A stretch of 64,000 bases of DNA, from the NCBI GenBank assembly GCA_963764625.1, contig CAVXTH010000009.1, positions 416,001 through 480,000 on the forward strand, written 5' to 3'. Positions 54,416-64,000 of this stretch are shown one piece after another. Numbering within the stretch: the stretch's first letter is position 1; the number at the start of each line of letters is the position of its first letter. The notes beneath the pieces are model-generated. The model ran no database searches, was not told the origin of the DNA, and saw only the letters and a list, made by a program, of their open reading frames with translations. The DNA comes from Candidatus Krumholzibacteriota bacterium. Its GTDB lineage: Bacteria; Krumholzibacteriota; Krumholzibacteriia; JAJRXK01. Position numbers and translations under genes: made by a program.

Positions 54416-54673
54416 GGGGACTCGGCGCGAGCACGCAATCCTCTGAAGAGCCTTCTATCCGGGTATTCTGGTCCATCTTGCCTGACCGGCCGCGGCCCGC
54501 GGCAACACAGGACAATTGAGTCTGCTGTAGGACTGTGGACGGCCACAAGCGGGTATGCCATCATCAATCGTCCCTGCGTGCAGATTTGACCATCCCTCGC
54601 TCCCGGGTGGTCGTCGGGCGCCCCCCAGCCAATTGTCCACCAGGCACGAGTGTAAACGTTCGAGGTGACAGGC

Positions 54674-56077
54674 ATGCGTATGCGGTTCTTAGTTCTTCTT
54701 CTCTTTGTTGCGGTCGCCATGCCGCTGCTGGATGGTTGCGGAAGCGACCCGACTGGCCCTGAGAACGGCGGATCGTCCGCGTTCTCGCGTATGATTTTCG
54801 GGAGCGGAACCGACAATACGCTCTCGGGCGACGTCGCCGTGACCTCCGACGGCCTGAGGGTGATGGTAGGGCAGTGCGGCCATTCGCTGCAGATCACCGG
54901 CTCCTCCACGACTTTGGATCCCTCGGGTACTTCGCACTTCTTCGTGGCCGGGTTCAATGCGGATGGTTCGACCTCCTCGGTCACCCTCGTCCCCGGTGCT
55001 GGCACTCCCCCGGAAATCCACGCGATGGTGAGCGACCCGAGCAACAACCTCGTGATCGCGGGGTTTTTCTTTTCCGACATTACCTTTGGATCCATCAACC
55101 TGACCGGCAGCGGCAGCGGGGACGTGTTCGTGGCCAAGTTGGATGCCACCGGTCACCCGATGTGGGCTCAGGGGGGGACGCAGGGAGTGCTCGATGACGA
55201 GGCCACCGACCTCGCGGTAGCTCCGGACGGCTCCATCTATGTCGCCGGTCTTGCCTACGGAGAGATCGGGCTTGCCGGAGTGACAGCGGGAGTTGCCGGA
55301 AAGTACAGTGGTTATCTTGTGAAGCTGGGCGCCAATGGAGATGGTATCTGGCAAAAGACGGCGACTGCGACGTCCCAGTCAACCTGCTGGGGGACGGCCG
55401 TCAGTCAAGACGGCTCAGTGCTCGTGTGTGGGGATTTCGCTGGCTCGAGCGTGACGATCGGTGGAGTGGTCCTGCCCAACGACGGATTGGCCAACGCGTT
55501 CATATCCCGCTTCAGCGCCGGTGGCGCGGGGATGGGCAACATCCGCATCGGTGGGCCAGGTACCGCCGTCGCGCGGCGGGTCGCCACCATAGGCGACGAG
55601 CCCGTCGTCGCGGGCACCTTCACGGGAACCGCTGACTTCGATGTCGACACCTCCGCGGGATCCATGGCTGCGGTGGGGATCGACGTGTTCATCGCGCGTT
55701 ATAGCCGGGCCGGAGAGCTACGTTGGGTGGTGACCCTCGGCGGAGCCGACGACCAGTTCGTCAGCGACTTGGCCCTCACCGACTCCGGCGATATCGTGGT
55801 CTGCGGGACCTTCTCTACCATCCTCACTGCGGGGTCGACGACGCTCAACTCGGTCGGCGCGACCGACGCGTATTTCGCGCGCGTGTCGGCTGACGGCCAG
55901 GTGCGCTCGGCGCAAAGGGTGGGCGGCTCGAACGATGAAACGACTACCGGCATAGCGGTGTCGGGAGCTTCCATCATCGTGGTCGGCAGCAGCAAATCCA
56001 ACGACTTGAGCTTCCCCGACGGATCGCAGCGGCCGCTGGCAGGTGAGATCGATGCCTTCATCTATCAGCAGCCCTAG
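54674..56077 (+). CDS. Lipoprotein with SBBP-like beta-propeller repeats (paralog 1)
   Basis: Lipobox LDGC; repeats of DxFVAK/RxxxxG..W and DGSIYVAG; ends FIYQQP. Confidence 0.8.
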   Translation: MRMRFLVLLLFVAVAMPLLDGCGSDPTGPENGGSSAFSRMIFGSGTDNTLSGDVAVTSDGLRVMVGQCGHSLQITGSSTTLDPSGTSHFFVAGFNADGSTSSVTLVPGAGTPPEIHAMVSDPSNNLVIAGFFFSDITFGSINLTGSGSGDVFVAKLDATGHPMWAQGGTQGVLDDEATDLAVAPDGSIYVAGLAYGEIGLAGVTAGVAGKYSGYLVKLGANGDGIWQKTATATSQSTCWGTAVSQDGSVLVCGDFAGSSVTIGGVVLPNDGLANAFISRFSAGGAGMGNIRIGGPGTAVARRVATIGDEPVVAGTFTGTADFDVDTSAGSMAAVGIDVFIARYSRAGELRWVVTLGGADDQFVSDLALTDSGDIVVCGTFSTILTAGSTTLNSVGATDAYFARVSADGQVRSAQRVGGSNDETTTGIAVSGASIIVVGSSKSNDLSFPDGSQRPLAGEIDAFIYQQP

Positions 56078-56125
56078 GCGGAGAACGCCAAGCCCTGACG
56101 ACCATCAACCTGCGAGGTCCTAGTC

Positions 56126-57523
56126 GTGCGTCCAACCCTCTTTCGTTTACTCGTCGTCGCGCTCTTTGCGTCGTTGGCGCTGAGCGGCTGTGGGAACGGC
56201 TCCACTTCCCCCGAGGATGGCGGACTCGCCGCGTTCGCGAAGCGTATGGGCTGTCGTCCCGACCTCAGCACGACGGCCGATGCCGTGGTCGTGACCTCGG
56301 ACGGGAATCGCATCGTGGTGGGTTCCTTCAGCGGGATGCTCCACCTCGCGGGCTCACCCGATTCATTGTCCGCGGGTGGGACCTCACGTATCTACTTTGC
56401 TGCTTTTGGTCGCGACGGTTCGCTCGCATGGCTCACCTCGGCCGCCGGTGGCGGCGCCCCGAGCATCGCGAACATGACGCGGGATGCGAGCGACAACCTC
56501 CTCCTCGTCGGCACCTACGACGGAAGCATCAATTTCGGCGGGATCACGCTCCCCAACAGCGGCGGTACTAACATCTTTTTCGCCAAGCTCGACAAGGACA
56601 CCCAGCCAATCTGGGTTCTCGGTGCTTCCTCGAGCGGGATGGACGATGGCGAAGACATTGCGGCCGACAGCGACGGCAATGTCTACATCTGCGGGTACGC
56701 CGGCGATGAAATGACAGTGGCGGGGGAGGACGTGGGTGTGCCGGGGCATGTGACGGGCTTCCTCGTGAAGCTGCTCGACAACGGTGGTGGGCGTTGGGGT
56801 GAGACCGCGGCGACGACTGGAGTCTCCAGCTGCCAGGGGGTTGCCGTGAGCGCGGATGGCACGGTCGTGGTGTGTGGAACCTACGCCGAGAATTCGGTGG
56901 ATATCTCCGGCGAGGTCCTCCCCAACGACGGCTACACCGACAGCTTCATCGGACGTTTTGGCGCCGATGGCTCCAGGCTGGGCGCCATTCACCTCGGTGG
57001 CGCCGGCGGCACCACCGTGCGCGCGGTGACGACGCTGGGCAACGACGCCATCGTCACCGGGTTCTTCAACGGAACGGTGGACTTCGATCTCAACACCGCC
57101 GCTGGCAGTGCCACCTCGTCAAGCGCCGACGCATTCGTAGCGTGTTACAGCGAGGCGGGTGAGCTGCTCTGGCTCAAGACCTTCGGACCGGGGGACGATC
57201 AGATTGGGTTGCGACTCGCCCGCATGGATGGAAATCGTATCCTGCTGAGCGGCCAGTTCTCGAGCTCCATCACTCTCGGTTCGAAGACTCTCACGTCCAC
57301 CGGAGAGCAGGACGTGTTCTTCGCCCGTTTGGACGCCGAGGGCAATGTCCTCAGCGTCGGCCAGATCGGCGGCTCCGACACCGAAGAATCCGCGTCTGCA
57401 GCCGTCGACGGTTCGACGGCGGTCGTCGTGGGGCTAAGCTGGTCAGATGAAACAATCTTCCCCAATGGAACCCAGCTGAGCCGCTTCGGCAAGCTCGACG
57501 GCTTCCTTTACCAGCAGCCCTAG
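56126..57523 (+). CDS. Lipoprotein with SBBP-like beta-propeller repeats (paralog 2)
   Basis: Lipobox LSGC; colinear with the previous gene (VTSDG, LPNDG, DFD); ends FLYQQP. Confidence 0.8.
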   Translation: MRPTLFRLLVVALFASLALSGCGNGSTSPEDGGLAAFAKRMGCRPDLSTTADAVVVTSDGNRIVVGSFSGMLHLAGSPDSLSAGGTSRIYFAAFGRDGSLAWLTSAAGGGAPSIANMTRDASDNLLLVGTYDGSINFGGITLPNSGGTNIFFAKLDKDTQPIWVLGASSSGMDDGEDIAADSDGNVYICGYAGDEMTVAGEDVGVPGHVTGFLVKLLDNGGGRWGETAATTGVSSCQGVAVSADGTVVVCGTYAENSVDISGEVLPNDGYTDSFIGRFGADGSRLGAIHLGGAGGTTVRAVTTLGNDAIVTGFFNGTVDFDLNTAAGSATSSSADAFVACYSEAGELLWLKTFGPGDDQIGLRLARMDGNRILLSGQFSSSITLGSKTLTSTGEQDVFFARLDAEGNVLSVGQIGGSDTEESASAAVDGSTAVVVGLSWSDETIFPNGTQLSRFGKLDGFLYQQP

Positions 57524-57533
57524 GAGGTTTGCG

Positions 57534-58013
57534 GTGCGAGTGATCGTAATGGCACTGGCAGTGCTCATGATTCTGGCTTCCGGATGCGGCAGCGACTCCC
57601 CTTCGGGTGTCCAGAACACGACGCCGACCACCTACGAATTGAGCGCGGGGCCGGGCTGGTTTGTCACCTCCCCGGACGTCGACCTTTCCAAGTTCTCCAG
57701 CGTAAGTATCGTCGTGACCTTCAAGAGCAACGCGGCGACCGATTTCACGTTCAGCACTTCACCTCAGTTCCAGCTCTGGACGCATCCCGACGTATACGAT
57801 CTTACTCAGCCGGGAACCGTCACGATCAACGATGAGCCGTCGGGCCAGGCGAGCCCTGGAAGCACGTTCATGTACGATCTGACGGTCGACCTGACCAACA
57901 TACCGCCCAACCAGGTTCACATCGCCCTGCGCCCGACGGAGGACACTACCTACGGTACGCTGGGAACATCAAAGATCTCGGTGTCTTCGTCTGAAGTAAA
58001 GTTCACGCCCTAG
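57534..58013 (+). CDS. Small hypothetical lipoprotein
   Basis: AGGAGG SD; lipobox ASGC; Ser/Thr-rich beta-type sequence. Confidence 0.7.
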   Translation: MRVIVMALAVLMILASGCGSDSPSGVQNTTPTTYELSAGPGWFVTSPDVDLSKFSSVSIVVTFKSNAATDFTFSTSPQFQLWTHPDVYDLTQPGTVTINDEPSGQASPGSTFMYDLTVDLTNIPPNQVHIALRPTEDTTYGTLGTSKISVSSSEVKFTP

Positions 58014-58166
58014 AGCGCATGCCTGGCCGTGACTGCTCGGCCGACAAGCGGGCACCGGCCTTCGAAACGGCTGCCCGATGGAGGTGTATCCTCAGTGTCC
58101 TGCGGTATGATTGACCACACCGAATTCACCGACCGCGGCGCTTCCCGTAACCCGCGAGGTAACACC

Positions 58167-59924
58167 ATGTCGCGACGATCCCCCCTCTGCCTGGTCGTCC
58201 TCGCTGCCGCCGCGGCGCTGGCCGTCGGCTGTGGCGGTGGCAGCCCTACGGCCCCACCGACGCCCCAACCCACCGGCTCCGCCGCGACCTGGCACGCCGA
58301 CCTCTACGGAGGCACCTTCACGTCGATCTGGGGCGCTTCACCCCAGGCCCTCCACGTGGCGACCAGCCAGATGACGCTCTTTTACGACGGCTCTACATGG
58401 CGCGCTTACCCCACAGGCGAAATCAGCTACGTCAACGACCTCTGGGGCACCGCGGCCGACAACGTCTACGCGACCAGCATCACCGGCAACGTCCTCCACT
58501 TCAATGGAACCGTGTGGGACACGTCGACCACGACGACCAAGATCCTCCGCACTGTGTGGGGAACCGGGCCGAACAACGTCTACGTCGGGGGGAGCGACGG
58601 TCTCATCCTCCACTACGACGGATCGAACTGGAGCCCGGAGACCACCGGCGTGAACTGGCAATTCGTGGAGATCTGGGGGACCGGTCCGAACGACATCTTC
58701 GCCCTCAGCCAGGAAGCTCGGGAGACGATGACGTTCACCGGCTCGTTTCTCCACTACAACGGGACTGACTGGGAGACGCGCTCCTTGAGCGGCCCCATGG
58801 GAATCCAGTCGGTATGGGGCTCGGGACCCGGAAAGATTTACATTTCCGACAACCAGGGCACGATCTTCGGCGGCGACGGCACGAACTTCTCAGACCGCAC
58901 GCCTCCCATCGACCAGCCGATCATAGACATTGCCGGACTTCCCTCGGGCGTGCTCTACGGATCTACGTCCACGCAGATCTACACCATGCTGGGGAACGCG
59001 CCCGGCCTTGATCCCGGCGAGACGATCTACGACCTGTGGGCGGCGCCGTGGGGAACGGTGTACGCCGTCGGGCAGGCCGGGACCGTGGTTTCGACCACCG
59101 GGTCCGATTGGAACGTGGTGTACGGTAAGAATCAGAATTATTCGCTGCGGACGGCCTTCGGATCGTCGTTGAACGACGTCTTCGCGCTCGGCGATGCCGG
59201 CGGGTTCCACTACGACGGGAGCAGCTGGACGCCGATGCCAGTACCGGTTCCCATACGGGCCGGCACGGCGACGTCGGCGAGCTTCGCGGTCGTCGTCGGC
59301 GACCTGGGCGCGATCGAGACGTGGGACGGAAGCTCCTGGCACGAGGCGCAGAGTCCCACGACGGTGCGACTCGAGGCAGTCTACGCGGCGTCCTCGAGTA
59401 ATGTGTTCGCCGCGGGAAAGAATGACGTCATCGTCCACTACGACGGCACGCAGTGGTCGCAGATCTATCCACCGAGTGCATCGACCGGCTGGCTCCTCGG
59501 TATCCATGGCTCGGACGCGAACAACGTGTTTGCCTGCGGCACAAACGGCGAGGTGCTCCACTTCGACGGGACAAACTGGACGCCGATGTCGACGCCGATC
59601 TCCACCGCGCTGCAGGCCGTATGGGCGTTTTCCCCGGACAATGCATTCGCGGTCGGCGGGTCCGGCGTCGTGCTGCACTACGACGGCAGCCAATGGCAGG
59701 TGATGCCGATCGGGACGACGGACTATCTGTGGAGTATCTGGGCGAGTGGTCCCAACGACATCTACGTGATGTCGACGAAAGACACGATGTTCCACTACGA
59801 CGGAGAGAAGTGGGCACCTTTCCCCGCTCCGCCGACCGGCCTGGTGAGCCCGATGTGGGGCACGGGCGGCCGTCTCTACGTGGTGGGCGTGGGGTCGACG
59901 GTGATGAGCCTCCGGATCCACTAG
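58167..59924 (+). CDS. Lipoprotein with HYDGxxW / xWGxxxxDxY beta-propeller repeats
   Basis: Lipobox AVGC; about a dozen ~40-aa repeats such as VWGTGPNNVYVGGSDGLILHYDGSNW. Confidence 0.85.
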   Translation: MSRRSPLCLVVLAAAAALAVGCGGGSPTAPPTPQPTGSAATWHADLYGGTFTSIWGASPQALHVATSQMTLFYDGSTWRAYPTGEISYVNDLWGTAADNVYATSITGNVLHFNGTVWDTSTTTTKILRTVWGTGPNNVYVGGSDGLILHYDGSNWSPETTGVNWQFVEIWGTGPNDIFALSQEARETMTFTGSFLHYNGTDWETRSLSGPMGIQSVWGSGPGKIYISDNQGTIFGGDGTNFSDRTPPIDQPIIDIAGLPSGVLYGSTSTQIYTMLGNAPGLDPGETIYDLWAAPWGTVYAVGQAGTVVSTTGSDWNVVYGKNQNYSLRTAFGSSLNDVFALGDAGGFHYDGSSWTPMPVPVPIRAGTATSASFAVVVGDLGAIETWDGSSWHEAQSPTTVRLEAVYAASSSNVFAAGKNDVIVHYDGTQWSQIYPPSASTGWLLGIHGSDANNVFACGTNGEVLHFDGTNWTPMSTPISTALQAVWAFSPDNAFAVGGSGVVLHYDGSQWQVMPIGTTDYLWSIWASGPNDIYVMSTKDTMFHYDGEKWAPFPAPPTGLVSPMWGTGGRLYVVGVGSTVMSLRIH

Positions 59925-59988
59925 CGGCCGGGTGTCCCTACCAGAAACTCCATCCGCATTGCCTAGCATGAACTCACTGCACACAGCC

Positions 59989-60339
59989 ACGGATAGTGGA
60001 TTGTATACGGCGCTTTAGCCGAAAAGCGAGCAACGACCTTCGAAACGGGTGCTCCTTGCGCTGTGTTCTCGGTGCGATGATCACGATGAGGATTGATCGT
60101 CGATCCGCGACTCACCCTACCGCAACTCTGTTCGCCCGACATGCGCCCACCTGAGCGGCTTCCACCTATCCTCGTGCGGGTCGTTGCCGCCGATCCGTGC
60201 CAGGTGTCTGAGAATCCGGTCCACCACCGCTGCTTCGTCGATCACCGACACGATCTTCATGGTTACCCCGCACTGCGGGCAGAGCATGGGGTCCACCTCG
60301 AAGATCCTGCGCAGCAGGCGTGCCCAGCTGCGGCTGCGC
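59989..60339 (+). repeat. 351-bp direct repeat, copy 1 (pairs with 63450-63800)
   Basis: Ungapped manual alignment gives about 14 mismatches in 351 bp. Confidence 0.95.
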
Positions 60340-60368
60340 ATGCCGCAGCTCTCGCAGCACCAGCCGTA
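59989..60368 (-). mobile_element. IS91/ISCR-like (Y2) transposase C-terminal remnant with ori-like end, copy 1
   Basis: Minus strand encodes YGW...RSRSWARLLRRIFEVDPMLCPQCG.TMKIVSVI....VVDRILRHL and ends ...TATACAATCCACTATCCGT. Confidence 0.8.
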
Positions 60369-60393
60369 GGAAGGGCTCGACGGCTTGTGAGTC

Positions 60394-61230
60394 TCAGTCG
60401 AAATGCTTCTTGAGCGCGTCGAGAACCGAGCTCCACGCGTGGTCGAAATAGTCATACACCTCGTTCCACTGGCCGCCCACACCCCAGCCGATCTGTGACA
60501 GGGTGACCGTCACTGTACCGTCCTCGTTCTCCTCGAATGTCATCACTACTTCGGTGCGGTACCCTCGCTCAGCTTCAAACTTGGGTGGAGCGTTCCAGGT
60601 GAACGCCAGCATAGTCTGTGGCAGATACGCCAGTACCCTACAGCCTTCGCCGCCGCGGTCGCCGGAGGCAGCTTCTTGGTTGAAGTACCATTCATACCGG
60701 CCGCCTGGCTTCAGCTCAATTGCGCTGTTGATCCTAAGGAATTGCCTGAGTCCATCGGACGTCGTGAACGACCGCCAGACATCGCCTATAGGAGCGTTGA
60801 CTCTGACAGTCTTGTCGATTCTCTGGTTCGAGATCTGTTCCGGCAGTTTGTCGCGGCCGTGCATGAGCGATGCAACGAACGGATAGAGCTTGTAGGTATG
60901 GACGCCGGCGACGACCGACGGTTCTTTGTCCATGATTTCGCGGGCTCCGGCTTCGTCGGCGACCTGCAGGACAACGACGCCGCCCAGTCCGAAAGCCGGG
61001 CCGGCCAGAAGCATCGTTCCGTCATACATCAGGTTGCGCAAGTAGACGAAGTGCTTCTCAAGAACCGCTTCTTCGTCCGGAGTCATGTTGCTCGGCCAGT
61101 CGGCGCGGGTCCCCTCGAGCAGCACCAGGAATTGTCTCTTCGGCATAGCATCCTCGGCGGCCGCCCGGTGCGGGAGCGCGAACTGCAGCATCAGACCGAG
61201 CAGCATGAGCGATTGTGTTAGTTTCTTCAT
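60394..61230 (-). CDS. Exported YCII-domain / SRPBCC (AHSA1-like) fusion protein
   Basis: Signal peptide (AAA); H..YL..L...G..LLAGP (YCII); VNAPIGDVWRSFTT...LAFTWNAPP...GWG (SRPBCC). Confidence 0.8.
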   Translation of the reverse strand: MKKLTQSLMLLGLMLQFALPHRAAAEDAMPKRQFLVLLEGTRADWPSNMTPDEEAVLEKHFVYLRNLMYDGTMLLAGPAFGLGGVVVLQVADEAGAREIMDKEPSVVAGVHTYKLYPFVASLMHGRDKLPEQISNQRIDKTVRVNAPIGDVWRSFTTSDGLRQFLRINSAIELKPGGRYEWYFNQEAASGDRGGEGCRVLAYLPQTMLAFTWNAPPKFEAERGYRTEVVMTFEENEDGTVTVTLSQIGWGVGGQWNEVYDYFDHAWSSVLDALKKHFD

Positions 61231-61256
61231 TTTCACCGTTCCTGCATTGATGCCTG

Positions 61257-61646
61257 TCACTCCCAGGCGCTCTGCTGTCGCGGCGTGCGCCCGAACTTCT
61301 GCGTGGCGAAACCGAGGAGCAGGCCGACGATGGTGCCGGGGATCATGATCTCAGCGTAGTAGTAGTTCCCCTCGGCGGTCGGCTGCATCGCCACGAGATA
61401 GGCCAGGATGAGTCCGACGGCGCCGCCGAAGAGGATGCCGATCGGGAGCGACGTTACTTTACGGGCAAAGAACCCGGCGGCGAGGCCGACCAGCAGTCCC
61501 TTGATTCCCGAAAAGAACATGATAGATCCGACCATCGACTTCGTTTCGGGATAGAAGAAGCTGGTGGCGCCGTCAATTGCCCCGAGCAGAAGGCCGAGGA
61601 TGATTCCGATCACTGGTTTGGACACGGTAGGTCTCCCTTGGTTCAT
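61257..61646 (-). CDS. Small Gly-rich 4-TM hypothetical membrane protein
   Basis: Four hydrophobic Gly-rich segments; AGGA SD upstream. Confidence 0.7.
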   Translation of the reverse strand: MNQGRPTVSKPVIGIILGLLLGAIDGATSFFYPETKSMVGSIMFFSGIKGLLVGLAAGFFARKVTSLPIGILFGGAVGLILAYLVAMQPTAEGNYYYAEIMIPGTIVGLLLGFATQKFGRTPRQQSAWE

Positions 61647-61699
61647 TGTCCTGCGAGTGTCACCGTTCTATTACACACCGAGACAAATCTCTTTAACTC

Positions 61700-62644
61700 T
61701 CAGCGGAGAAAATACAGAATGACACGCGCCAGGATATAGGCGCACACCAGTAACACAATGAACTTGTTGCGTTTAACGAACCGTAGCGCTCGCTCGAAGA
61801 AATTCTCCGGGTAAGCAAGTACTGTTTGGTTGGCCAGCCACGCCTGGATATCGTCGATCAGCGGCTGGACCGTCGGATAGCGGTCATCCGGATGAGCCGC
61901 GCGACAGGTCGCGATGATCGCCACCAGCGGCCGCGGAATCTTCTTGCCGGACCAATCGACCGGCCGATCGTCCGGATCGGTTGGTGCTCGCCCGGTCAGG
62001 AGATATTGCAGCACACCGCCGAGCGCAAAGATGTCGGCACGGTGATCAATCTGCTCCGCCCCCGCCACCTGCTCCGGCGCCATATAGCCGGGGGAGCCGG
62101 CGACAGTGCTCTCCGCCTCCGGCTCGGTCGTCAGCCGGGCAATCCCCCAATCCATCACCAACAATTCGCCGAACGACCCGACCATGATATTCTCCGGCTT
62201 CAGGTCGCGGTGGATGACGCCGCCCGCATGGGCGAACGCTACCGGTTCGCAGATACGGATAAACAGATCGAGACGGCGTGGGAGCGAACGATCGGGCGTA
62301 CACCACTGGTCGAGCCGTTCTCCCTGCACATGCTTCATCGCATAATAGAAGCGGCCGTCGGGCAGCTCACCCAGATCGTGTACCGGCACAATGCCCGGAT
62401 GCTCGAGGCTGGCGATGATCCGTGCCTCGGCGCGCAGCCGATTCGTCAGGTTGTCCGACATCACCGCGACGGAGATGAGCTTGAGTGCGACTTTGCGCAG
62501 AAGGGCCGTATCCTCGGCTAGCCAGACTGCTCCCATCCCCCCTTCACCCAGCTTTTCGATCAGCCGGTAGCGGGTGTCGGACAAGTCCGGTTGGTCGAGA
62601 AGCAGCCGCAAGTGCCTGAGGTGTTTGTCGGACAGTTCACTCAT
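61700..62644 (-). CDS. Short Ser/Thr protein kinase with C-terminal TM
   Basis: LGEGGMGAV, HRDLKPEN, DWGIA and GSPGYMAPEQ; ATG overlaps the sigma factor 3' end. Confidence 0.9.
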   Translation of the reverse strand: MSELSDKHLRHLRLLLDQPDLSDTRYRLIEKLGEGGMGAVWLAEDTALLRKVALKLISVAVMSDNLTNRLRAEARIIASLEHPGIVPVHDLGELPDGRFYYAMKHVQGERLDQWCTPDRSLPRRLDLFIRICEPVAFAHAGGVIHRDLKPENIMVGSFGELLVMDWGIARLTTEPEAESTVAGSPGYMAPEQVAGAEQIDHRADIFALGGVLQYLLTGRAPTDPDDRPVDWSGKKIPRPLVAIIATCRAAHPDDRYPTVQPLIDDIQAWLANQTVLAYPENFFERALRFVKRNKFIVLLVCAYILARVILYFLR

Positions 62645-63389
62645 TCGGATTGATTCCCAACAGGCGTCGCACTTCGTCACGGTACTCATCGTCGGTGGCG
62701 GTCAGCATCTTCAATCGTTCCAGCACAATGGCGCGAAAAGTCCGCCGCGCCAACGCGAGATAGTTGGTCACGTCGGTCTGGCGCAGGCCGAATTGCTCGG
62801 CGAGGTCGGCGTAGGACAACCGCAGCGACTGCTCGACCCGATCGATGTCGTACCTTTCAAACAAACGATAGTACACCTCTTTCCCCTGCTGCATGAGCGT
62901 TTCCTTCAGTTGTACCAGAGACGAATCGAACAGCGCCCGCGTCAACTCGATTTCAAACTGCTGCTCGGCCGACGTGCCGCCGGAGGCAAATCGTTCCAGC
63001 TCCCGTTCGGCAACCGTATAGTCGAGCGAGACAACCTCGAGGTCGCCGCCCCGTTTCTGTCGCGAGGCCGCTTTCAGTTCGTTGTTCATCATTCGGTCGA
63101 GGACCGTTCGCAGGTAGGTGCGGAAGCGCGCTTTCGACGGATCGAAGTCGGCCAGGAATTCCTTTTCGATCACGCGGGCAAAAAACTCCTGCGTCAGATC
63201 ACGGGCGTCGTCGCCGCTCCTCTGCCATTTCAACCTGATGTACTTGTACACTGGCTTCCAGTAGACATCGACCAGCGCATGCAGCGCCCGCCGCCGCACA
63301 TCGCGTTCACCGCTGCCGAGCGCCCGGATGGCGGAATAGCGAGTCGGTGGAAACCGGTCGGATCGGTCATGATGTAGGCTGTCGATCAT
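62637..63389 (-). CDS. ECF sigma factor, kinase-associated type
   Basis: FPPTRYS, YWKPVYKYIR, DARDLTQEFF, ARFRTYL, KRGG and region 4 SYADLAEQFG. Confidence 0.88.
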   Translation of the reverse strand: MIDSLHHDRSDRFPPTRYSAIRALGSGERDVRRRALHALVDVYWKPVYKYIRLKWQRSGDDARDLTQEFFARVIEKEFLADFDPSKARFRTYLRTVLDRMMNNELKAASRQKRGGDLEVVSLDYTVAERELERFASGGTSAEQQFEIELTRALFDSSLVQLKETLMQQGKEVYYRLFERYDIDRVEQSLRLSYADLAEQFGLRQTDVTNYLALARRTFRAIVLERLKMLTATDDEYRDEVRRLLGINPNE

Positions 63390-63409
63390 CGCGTGCGCCA
63401 CTTTCGCTT

Positions 63410-63489
63410 ACGGATAGTGGATTGTATACGGTGCTTCGGTTTAAGAGCGACGGATAGTGGATTGTATAGGGTACTTCGGCCGAAAAGCG
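63410..63489 (+). repeat. Tandem 2 x 40-bp imperfect repeat of the element end
   Basis: ACGGATAGTGGATTGTATAcGGTgCTTCGGtttAgAGCG-like unit followed by ACGGATAGTGGATTGTATAgGGTaCTTCGGccgAAAAGCG. Confidence 0.92.
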
Positions 63490-63800
63490 AGCCTCGACCT
63501 TTGAAACGGGTGCTCTTTACGCTGTGTTCTCGGTGCGATGATCACCATGAGGATTGATCGTCGATCCGCGACTCACCCTACCGCAACTCTGTTCGCCCGA
63601 CATGCGCCCACCAGAGCGGCTTCCACCTATCCTCGTGCGGGTCGTTGCCGCCGATCCGTGCCAGGTGTCTGAGAATCCGGTCCACCACCGCTGCTTCGTC
63701 GATCACCGACACGATCTTCATGGTTCCCCCGCACTGCGGGCAGAGCATGGGGTCCAGCTCGAAGATCCTGCGCAGCAGGCGTGCCCAGCTGCGGCTGCGC
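63450..63800 (+). repeat. 351-bp direct repeat, copy 2 (pairs with 59989-60339)
   Basis: Same ungapped alignment as copy 1. Confidence 0.95.
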
Positions 63801-63882
63801 GCAGTGGAGGGTGCCCTGGCGATCGTCGCGTCCTGGGGGTTGGCTCTTGCCCCTCGGGCCCGGTGCGAGTACCAGCCGTAAT

Positions 63883-64000
63883 GCGAATGTGCTGGGTGGG
63901 GTGTTGTTCGGCGTCGGCATCGCGCTTCTGATCGAACGATTCAGGCCGCCGTTTCGAATCGTGGGACTGGGACTCGGCGGGGCGGTGAGCATCAACCTCT
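63883..64000 (+). pseudogene. 5'-truncated membrane-protein gene fragment
   Basis: Reads ANVLGGVLFGVGIALLIERFRPPFRIVGLGLGGAVSINL starting right at the element boundary, with no start codon or SD of its own evident. Confidence 0.45.

Follow-up and report, generated by a model that had tools for sequence, protein, structure and literature searches.

The DNA considered here is a window of 64,000 nt (positions 416001-480000 of C9, a 1.13 Mb contig) from G000, a metagenome-assembled genome (MAG) of 3.57 Mb in nine contigs that belongs to Candidatus Krumholzibacteriota. Toward its distal edge the window carries two direct repeats in the same orientation (59989-60339 and 63450-63800), and these turn out to be the first units of a long chromosomal array built on the ends of a rolling-circle element that we assign to the IS91 family. 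An earlier note, made from the letters of this DNA, had described the repeats as 351 bp long, gapless and differing by about 14 mismatches, and the alignment agrees exactly (14 mismatches, 96.0% identity, 0 gaps), with 11 of the 14 mismatches lying within the first 97 nt, the non-coding part at the replication origin (ori) end. On the minus strand each repeat holds the end of an open reading frame (ORF) (...SWARLLRRIFEVDPMLCPQCG.TMKIVSVIDEAAVVDRILRHLARIGGNDPHE...) followed by about 130 nt of non-coding sequence closing in CCACTATCCGT, and beyond this terminus the flanks of the two repeats are unrelated. The description of each repeat as a C-terminal transposase tail joined to a shared terminus also holds, u1 encoding residues ~392-449 and u2 residues ~363-449 of the full IS91-family protein, both with a sharp CCACTATCCGT end, and the enclosed module indeed consists of four co-oriented genes, all on the minus strand. 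The match of u2 to the full-length element is longer than the repeat, covering 431 bp and reaching 63880, and head-to-tail before u2 stands a 40-nt ori stub that is 34/40 identical to u2 and 33/40 to u1. Given the fact that u1 and u2 keep the ori end only, they are not derivatives of the both-ended type resembling MITEs (transposable elements of the miniature inverted-repeat kind). The features of this part of the window are listed in Table 1.

Table 1. Ori units, stub, relic and cargo genes at the distal end of the window (window coordinates).
Feature	Position	Strand	Evidence and remarks
Degenerate ori relic	58037..58098	+	nhmmer ori profile E=1.1e-4, model positions 27-87; blastn 86% over 35 nt
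Block 0 cargo, 631-aa repeat-rich ORF, probably lipoprotein (beta-propeller-like repeats)	58029..59924	+	ORF, internal repeats
Unit u1, ori end and transposase tail	59989..60339	-	Element positions 1-184 + 287-456; 102-bp deletion; nick-side terminus 59989
Cargo 1, last operon gene, YciI + AHSA1/SRPBCC fusion, 288 aa	60394..61260	-	Pfam AHSA1 2.7e-17, YCII 3.1e-7
Cargo 1, membrane protein, 129 aa	61257..61646	-	ORF; homologue (43% identical) at L108, where the genes follow in the same order
Cargo 1, Ser/Thr protein kinase, 329 aa	61700..62689	-	Pfam Pkinase 1.4e-36; NCBIfam and PADLOC kinase models
Cargo 1, first operon gene, ECF-type sigma factor, 254 aa	62637..63401	-	Pfam Sigma70_r2, Sigma70_ECF; TIGR02937 54.8 bits against a cut-off of 42.9
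Ori stub, first 40 nt of unit	63410..63449	-	Stops at 3' side of hairpin 1; head-to-tail with u2
Unit u2, ori end and transposase tail	63450..63880	-	Element positions 1-184 + 287-536; 102-bp deletion as in u1
Start of block 2 cargo	63881..64000		Extends beyond the window edge as far as the following ori end (C9 482019); beta-helix protein with type IX secretion system (T9SS) sorting domain

To survey the copies, the 351-bp unit was compared with all nine contigs by BLAST and by a profile (nhmmer) of its first 99 nt. The unit gave 14 matches to the whole genome, all of them on the plus strand of C9 between 474040 and 512794; three short BLAST matches on C2, C4 and C6 correspond to 60 nt of flank inside the query and not to the unit itself. 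After refinement the count is 11 full ori ends (C9 475989, 479450, 482019, 485236, 487021, 497334, 500526, 502613, 507417, 512444 and 515230), the 40-nt stub (479410) and one relic (474037-474098), all on the plus strand of C9 between 474037 and 515325, and no ori unit was matched elsewhere in the 3.57 Mb. The ori end at 515230 is diverged (81%), the units being otherwise 91-99% identical. All units in G000 stop at the same nucleotide, after which 12 different flanks follow, and a chance repeat of the unit is excluded because it recurs nine more times downstream of the window pair. The suspicion that the array might continue past the window edge was therefore justified, as it extends 35 kb further, and the many copies with one sharp shared boundary that had been looked for are present as 11 full ori ends.

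The same array, outside the window, contains one complete copy, element A (C9 497334-499123, 1790 bp), whose numbering runs from position 1 at the ori end to position 1790 at the terminus (ter) end. Its transposase ORF (C9 497588-498964) has 458 aa when read from the first GTG; the database protein P0001, to which it is 99% identical, has 433 aa. The product matches Pfam Zn_Tnp_IS91 (4.2e-21) and Y2_Tnp (5.8e-26), passes the NCBIfam model transpos_IS91 with 196.4 bits against a cut-off of 125, and contains HPHVH and RYYGWYS, which we take to be its HUH and Y2 motifs. Hence the intact IS91-family transposase with the same 3' end, which the earlier note had proposed to seek, lies within the array itself. 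Homologues at E<=0.001 numbered 1614 among 8000 scored proteins, and the transposase is part of a large environmental family. The earlier designation "IS91/ISCR-like" is only half right: the IS91 part stands, as the protein passes the IS91 model, and the ISCR part falls, as the element has a defined ter end and scores 182 bits, where 925 are required, on NCBIfam ISCR_clade_Ia, the only ISCR model matched.

The ori end (ACGGATAG...) and the ter end (...CACTCATCTG) of the element are unrelated to each other, so that terminal inverted repeats are lacking; the ter end is common to three copies (A, u9 and u10), and no target duplication flanks any of these three. The ori end contains two hairpins in its first ~75 nt, and the pairing of hairpin 2 is kept by changes on both arms in diverged copies. 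Two subterminal palindromes have been described for oriIS of IS91 and IS801 (PMC13181058). Relatives of the element in other genomes have a similar end motif, ATACAA.C..CTATCCG, located 260-300 nt past the stop codon. Taken together, the transposase, the ends, the ori hairpins and the lack of target duplication lead us to place the element in the IS91 family. As a side observation, tail-only IS91 remnants comprising the last 40-80 codons occur as solitary copies in several other phyla (loci L086, L087, L093, L094, L095, L097 and L098); in these 7 of 29 loci the tail was the sole match, although the locus sequence extends over 1 kb upstream of it, and ori-end fragments of the IS91 family may be widespread.

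The other copies are truncated at various positions of the element: u1 at 456, u2 at 536, u3 and u7 at 247, u4 at 630 and u5 at 99, while copy B (C9 502613-503892) is cut at position 1280 and carries a 5'-truncated transposase. Units u9 and u10, both outside the window, keep both ends and lack positions 592-1572 (1-184 + 287-591 + 1573-1790, ~702 bp), which agrees with the definition of non-autonomous MITE-like elements in that both parental ends are present and the transposase gene is deleted. The 102-bp deletion seen in u1 and u2 is derived, because homologues share the C-terminus that the deleted stretch encodes, and it therefore marks one lineage of copies. Counting both this array and the sister array described below, 14 copies keep ori without ter and 2 lack ori (binomial p=0.004); when shared or duplicated copies are counted once the figures are 11 and 2 (two-sided binomial ~0.02). 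Truncation is thus almost always anchored on the ori end.

A search of 40 relatives with the 1790 bp of element A gave matches in eight, and near-identical copies were confined to one of these, the genus-mate G002, itself a MAG (88% complete, 7% contamination). The G002 copies lie between the same flanks as in G000 (left flank 93%, right flank 87-88% identical) and comprise eight full ori ends and three stubs in a single orientation, again with a sharp common ori boundary at all eight ends, the units being 89-100% identical to those of G000. What DNA the two arrays have in common is limited to their units, a single block (G000 485340-488035, 99.5%) and copies of elements of the IS30, IS481 and IS66 types; different DNA abuts the nick of the shared ori4 block in each genome. 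The cargo of G002 is accordingly almost wholly different, and the expectation that cargo would not be syntenic in relatives proved correct. The empty-site allele that had been sought is present in two further relatives, G004 and G001, in which the left CBS-domain gene adjoins the convergent right-flank gene. Right-flank homology begins there less than 150 bp away from the CBS stop codon, and the two genes have nothing ori-like between them. Since the flank genes are adjacent there, the island can be delimited as C9 ~470416-515330, or ~45 kb. None of the outcomes that the earlier note had named as pointing to decayed scars or a local duplication (two copies only, ragged boundaries, no cognate transposase, cargo syntenic without repeats) occurred.

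Across C9 452-526 kb, G000 and G002 are 77-78% identical in the core, 84% in the last 4 kb left of the island and 93% in its left part, and on the right the value is 88% over 8 kb before returning to 77%. This gradient suggests that recombination in the flanks may have transferred the region as a whole from one lineage to another. A second G002 contig has a right flank 95% identical to that of G000 and a full-length element at the u10 position; given the 88% completeness and 7% contamination it may derive from a second strain. In G005, which belongs to another genus of the family, at least five same-orientation tails of more diverged IS91 transposases lie within 33 kb of one contig. Separately, an IS66-family element in the island (C9 493883-496258, with TnpB- and TnpC-type genes) is 100% identical in G002 over 2376 bp where the core is ~77% identical, which indicates recent transfer.

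Several features at the junctions bear on how the blocks were formed. Blocks 3 (C9 482018-484110) and 7 (500525-502612) are copies of each other over 2094 bp (98.9%), consisting of an ori unit and 1.85 kb of cargo; the duplication starts at the ori nick, its second copy ends within a DUF4386 gene exactly at the nick of ori B, and the rest of block 3 has no second copy. The copying of a whole block of ori unit and cargo, as the earlier note had imagined it, is thus realized here from the exact ori end onward. Units u9 and u10 share 736 bp (99.2%), namely the 702-bp derivative and 35 bp past ter that are not shared by A, which looks like a signature of ter read-through. Some cargo, furthermore, can be traced. 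Cargo 3 resembles C5 493400-498476 (75-83% nucleotide identity, same gene order), cargo 9 is collinear with C7 247121-243234 (~74-82%) and cargo 10 resembles C3 6482-8610 (75-82%), so that several cargo stretches are diverged copies of chromosomal segments of the same genome. The last gene of cargo 3 is cut after ~60 codons, whereas its C5 paralogue goes on; the cut falls exactly at the ori4 nick, and what lies past u4 is unrelated to C5; cargo 9 reaches within 3 nt of ori10, and the DNA past u10 is like C3 and not C7. At all three testable junctions, that of the block 3/7 duplication included, the source locus is not continued beyond the unit, and therefore the units are not simple insertions into contiguous DNA. 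Finally, ori stubs in head-to-tail position number four over the two arrays and measure 14, 28, 38 and 40 nt; three match the following ori at 14/14, 28/28 and 37/38 positions, the 40-nt window stub being the fourth (34/40). Such identity to the next ori is as expected from nicking and rejoining at ori, and a stub would equally be left by termination a few nucleotides into the next ori.

IS91 transposition is described as starting at oriIS, downstream of tnpA, and proceeding across the gene toward terIS; DNA further on is mobilised when termination fails, and the intermediate that inserts is a single-stranded circle (PMC13181058). We hold it fairly probable that the array arose by one-ended rolling-circle transposition of this kind, which stacked blocks of ori and cargo, probably at resident ori ends. 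The transposase would nick the plus strand just 5' of ACGGATAG, and this strand would be displaced by replication toward higher coordinates, a direction taken from homology to IS91. When ter fails, or a unit has no ter, the displaced strand would comprise the ori, the transposase tail and the DNA beyond. The distal 3' end of the incoming strand would then be joined to the nick at a resident ori, a site which the enzyme must cleave anyway, and repeated joining would yield head-to-tail, one-directional blocks over the 45-kb island, in which the window repeats would be units 1 and 2 and the sigma factor/kinase operon the cargo of block 1. A stub would be left where the transposase-linked 5' end is rejoined to a briefly extended 3' end. 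The short units would presumably be mobilised in trans, as the earlier note had supposed; alternatively, they could be premature-termination products of full copies, as known for IS801. We infer that a resident ori is the preferred insertion site, and insertion may be site-specific in an integron-like manner. A further-reaching version, which we regard as doubtful, is that of a "rolling-circle integron", where strands primed at any ori unit, including those of 99-430 nt without a transposase gene, would integrate at the resident ori nick. Such a system might, tentatively, be a transposase-driven, site-specific accretion by which one site collects and reshuffles operons and segments of related bacteria, and the stubs would in that less likely case be scars of abortive initiation and rejoining.

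Several observations weigh against stacking at resident ori ends. No conserved tetranucleotide was found at the flanks of the ori nick among 17 junctions in G000 and G002, nor a common end motif at the six distinct truncation points in G000, so that neither a target tetranucleotide of the CTTG/GTTC type nor a related one at termination points is recognisable; in IS91, IS801 and IS1294, by contrast, tetranucleotides mark targets and termination points (PMC13181058, PMC3189936). The u9 derivative lies between two cargo stretches and not against a resident ori, and therefore insertion is not exclusively ori-targeted. In G002, one duplication of 1543 bp has an ori boundary at its end but none at its start. 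The common orientation alone could stem from a strand bias of single-strand transposition. The arrays of G000 and G002 may share a recent common origin and would then not be independent, and both genomes are metagenome assemblies, with the incompleteness and contamination of G002 given above. Public runs containing 7-29% of the sampled words consisted of short-read contigs throughout, and four of them (X1, X2, X3 and X5) gave no interpretable circle, excision or empty-site junction, their cover being fragmentary, of low depth and broken at the units; three joints in them have short sides or are divergent stretches. This absence is uninformative because all the cover comes from low-coverage contigs.

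It is conceivable that full or "miniature" IS91 copies were inserted singly into a variable island whose cargo came by other routes, strand bias giving the common orientation and later deletions removing the ter side, so that no cargo was ever moved by the units. With IS801, pieces of the ori end 229, 360 and 679 nt long are a frequent direct transposition product, amounting to about a quarter of trapped insertions, and most genomic IS801 fragments were judged rearrangement products by the authors (PMC3189936); by analogy, the short units of the window may be transposition products and not substrates. Such a history would also fit the presence of IS30, IS481/IS3-like and IS66 elements, which mark the island as a general sink for mobile DNA, the u9 derivative between cargo stretches, and the single tail-only remnants in other phyla (7/29 loci). 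We nevertheless consider it unlikely, as the cargo across a unit is non-contiguous in the source locus at 3/3 testable junctions, cargo ends match the nick site to the nucleotide, one block of ori and cargo was copied as a unit, and the cargo is nearly all different between arrays that share units and flanks.

More improbable still is the idea that the units are passive repeats, between which homologous recombination or unequal crossing-over shuffles, duplicates and replaces DNA. With 91-99% identity over 180-630 bp they are similar enough for RecA-type recombination, the identity gradient suggests exchange of the whole region between lineages, and a crossover inside a unit would account equally well for where the block 3/7 duplication begins on the left. 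Recombination leaves unexplained, however, why mid-gene cargo should stop exactly at the next ori nick, why there are stubs of 14-40 nt and a 35-bp ter read-through in u9 and u10, and how diverged segments resembling C5, C7 and C3 came to lie between units. That repeats were collapsed or chimerically joined during assembly is very improbable: the genome is a MAG, and short-read contigs from other samples do break at the units, yet the array lies on a 1.13 Mb contig of a genome in nine contigs, the units differ by diagnostic substitutions, deletions and truncation points, an independent assembly (G002) has a comparable array at the same locus, and an unrelated run contains a 3670-nt contig that includes the distal 872 bp of cargo 3 and stops at the ori4 boundary. 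One-ended transposition with stacking at ori ends thus remains the reading that we prefer.

As for the cargo within the window, the ori relic (58037-58098) lacks the terminal 26 nt of ori and forms the left edge of the variable array, where homology to G002 stops at C9 473991 (window 57991). The 631-aa ORF of block 0 has at least six internal repeats of ~39 codons (...HYDGS.W...), matches no Pfam family above threshold and looks like an unclassified beta-propeller lipoprotein; a 32% identical paralogue lies at C9 69.8-71.5 kb, and the block 0 DNA has no match in the sister-array segment of G002. The cargo-1 operon is complete and tightly bounded by units, the start codon of the sigma factor lying 9-18 nt from the 40-nt ori stub and the stop codon of the YciI + AHSA1 gene 55 nt from the u1 tail. 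At the DNA level cargo 1 has no match in nine other genomes of the family, where only short kinase-motif matches were obtained. The YciI + AHSA1 fusion was not found in the eight other genomes of its own family that were searched, and its best in-phylum matches (46-49% identical) come from another family. The order of kinase, membrane protein and YciI/AHSA1 gene recurs at L108, a locus from another family of the class, at 43-46% protein identity; neither the DNA search of the family nor the protein search identified a donor. A scan of window 59900-64000 for the sigma-70 consensus gave 0 sites where 1.3 are expected by chance, which speaks neither for nor against an outward promoter within the ori unit of the kind that ISCR1 has. 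To the left of the array, window 54665-58013 contains three consecutive lipoprotein genes, two of which are paralogues of 465-470 aa, with a weak match to the SBBP beta-propeller repeat in one of them, while the remaining gene encodes 159 aa; this trio belongs to the island, being absent at the G001/G004 empty site and 93% identical in G002, and lies outside the part that bears ori units.

In the wider island the cargo blocks measure 1.4-10 kb, with heterogeneous, often truncated genes in both orientations and a GC content of 0.526-0.657 against 0.629 in the flanking core. They encode, among others, beta-helix proteins (one with a T9SS sorting domain), a DUF4386 protein, an M16 peptidase, FG-GAP proteins, an AIPR/AbiU-like protein, a PT-HINT protein and an HNH protein, and none of the 48 island ORFs scanned belongs to an integrase or recombinase family. 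A defence island was considered and set aside as insufficiently founded, PADLOC having given generic kinase models for the cargo-1 kinase and one AbiU/AIPR-like protein outside the window. The latter (C9 496255-497274; Pfam AIPR 1.3e-35, PADLOC AbiU 2.8e-28) stands directly before the ori end of the intact element and may be truncated, as its C-terminal two-thirds alone match the models. Between u10 and the oldest ori relic lies a gene for a 678-aa protein with a C-terminal HNH domain (C9 513157-515193; L022:3157-5190), which resembles IscB (34.6 bits, cut-off 175) and DpdF weakly; copies 69-82% identical in nucleotides occur on C3 and in G001, G003 and G004, so the gene may itself be mobile. 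It is shared with G002 at 87%. A 259-bp inverted repeat (C9 487195-487453 and 491140-491398, 99.6%) encloses an IS30-type helix-turn-helix transposase fragment, a NosD-like beta-helix gene and an IS481/IS3-type transposase, and pieces of this stretch are also found in G002 at other positions.

Among known systems the closest are IS91, IS801 and IS1294, with which the element shares Zn_Tnp_IS91 and Y2_Tnp domains with HUH motif and paired tyrosines, distinct ori and ter ends without terminal inverted repeats, the lack of target duplication, two ori hairpins, ori-keeping fragments cut variably on the ter side, and a probable ter read-through that would carry flanking DNA. It differs from them in having no recognisable target or termination tetranucleotide, in that all copies lie at one locus in one orientation and partition it into at least ten cargo blocks, in that the cargo consists of whole operons and chromosomal segments of related bacteria and not of short fragments of neighbouring genes, and in its host, a member of Candidatus Krumholzibacteriota. 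Helitrons are alike in the HUH motif with two tyrosines, the subterminal hairpin, the capture of gene fragments by end bypass and the excess of non-autonomous derivatives over autonomous copies; the present element differs in having no helicase domain, a bacterial host, and clustering in a single array instead of dispersal. IS91 "cassettes" with circular forms are also known (PMC5737581).

The arrangement likewise recalls ISCR elements in general layout, with gene modules between same-orientation, partly truncated IS91-like copies and beside the ori end. In complex class 1 integrons and ISCR2 units, genes lie between same-orientation IS91-like copies, some of them truncated, and directly beside the ori end, capture by failed termination being the accepted model. 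The island differs from these in its clear ter end, common to three copies, in the clade Ia score of 182 against 925 bits, in cargo that does not consist of resistance genes, and in its chromosomal location, and the ISCR arrangements known to us are all much shorter. One-ended capture is already known, and so are miniature derivatives of the ori end and modules lying between ISCR copies of the same orientation. In the full-text literature, with subscription journals and supplements outside reach, no account was found of IS91 ori ends that form a long one-directional array on a chromosome. Without precedent among what was found is the combination of one chromosomal site with at least 11 one-directional ori ends, recognisable cargo, a sister array, empty sites and stubs. 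Most of what points to gene capture by IS91 and ISCR elements comes from antibiotic-resistance plasmids, a setting of extreme selection and sampling. The locus is a natural, non-clinical case of IS91-type capture in a poorly known phylum, in which a single site displays an intact element, deletion derivatives, ori-only units, duplicated blocks, traceable cargo, a sister array and empty sites.

With integrons, the system invoked by the earlier note, the island has in common a fixed chromosomal platform, one-directional units each with a structured single-strand site, a content that varies between close relatives and an enzyme encoded at the locus. It differs in lacking IntI, attI and attC, its enzyme being an HUH nuclease and its repeats IS91 3' ends and not attC sites, and entry of new blocks at one end is not among the features seen here. 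If insertion is indeed aimed at a resident ori, HUH transposons would be able to build integron-like cassette platforms, which would offer a simple design to test how ISCR-type elements assemble multi-gene regions and would constitute a second, mechanistically unrelated route to cassette arrays next to that of the integrons.

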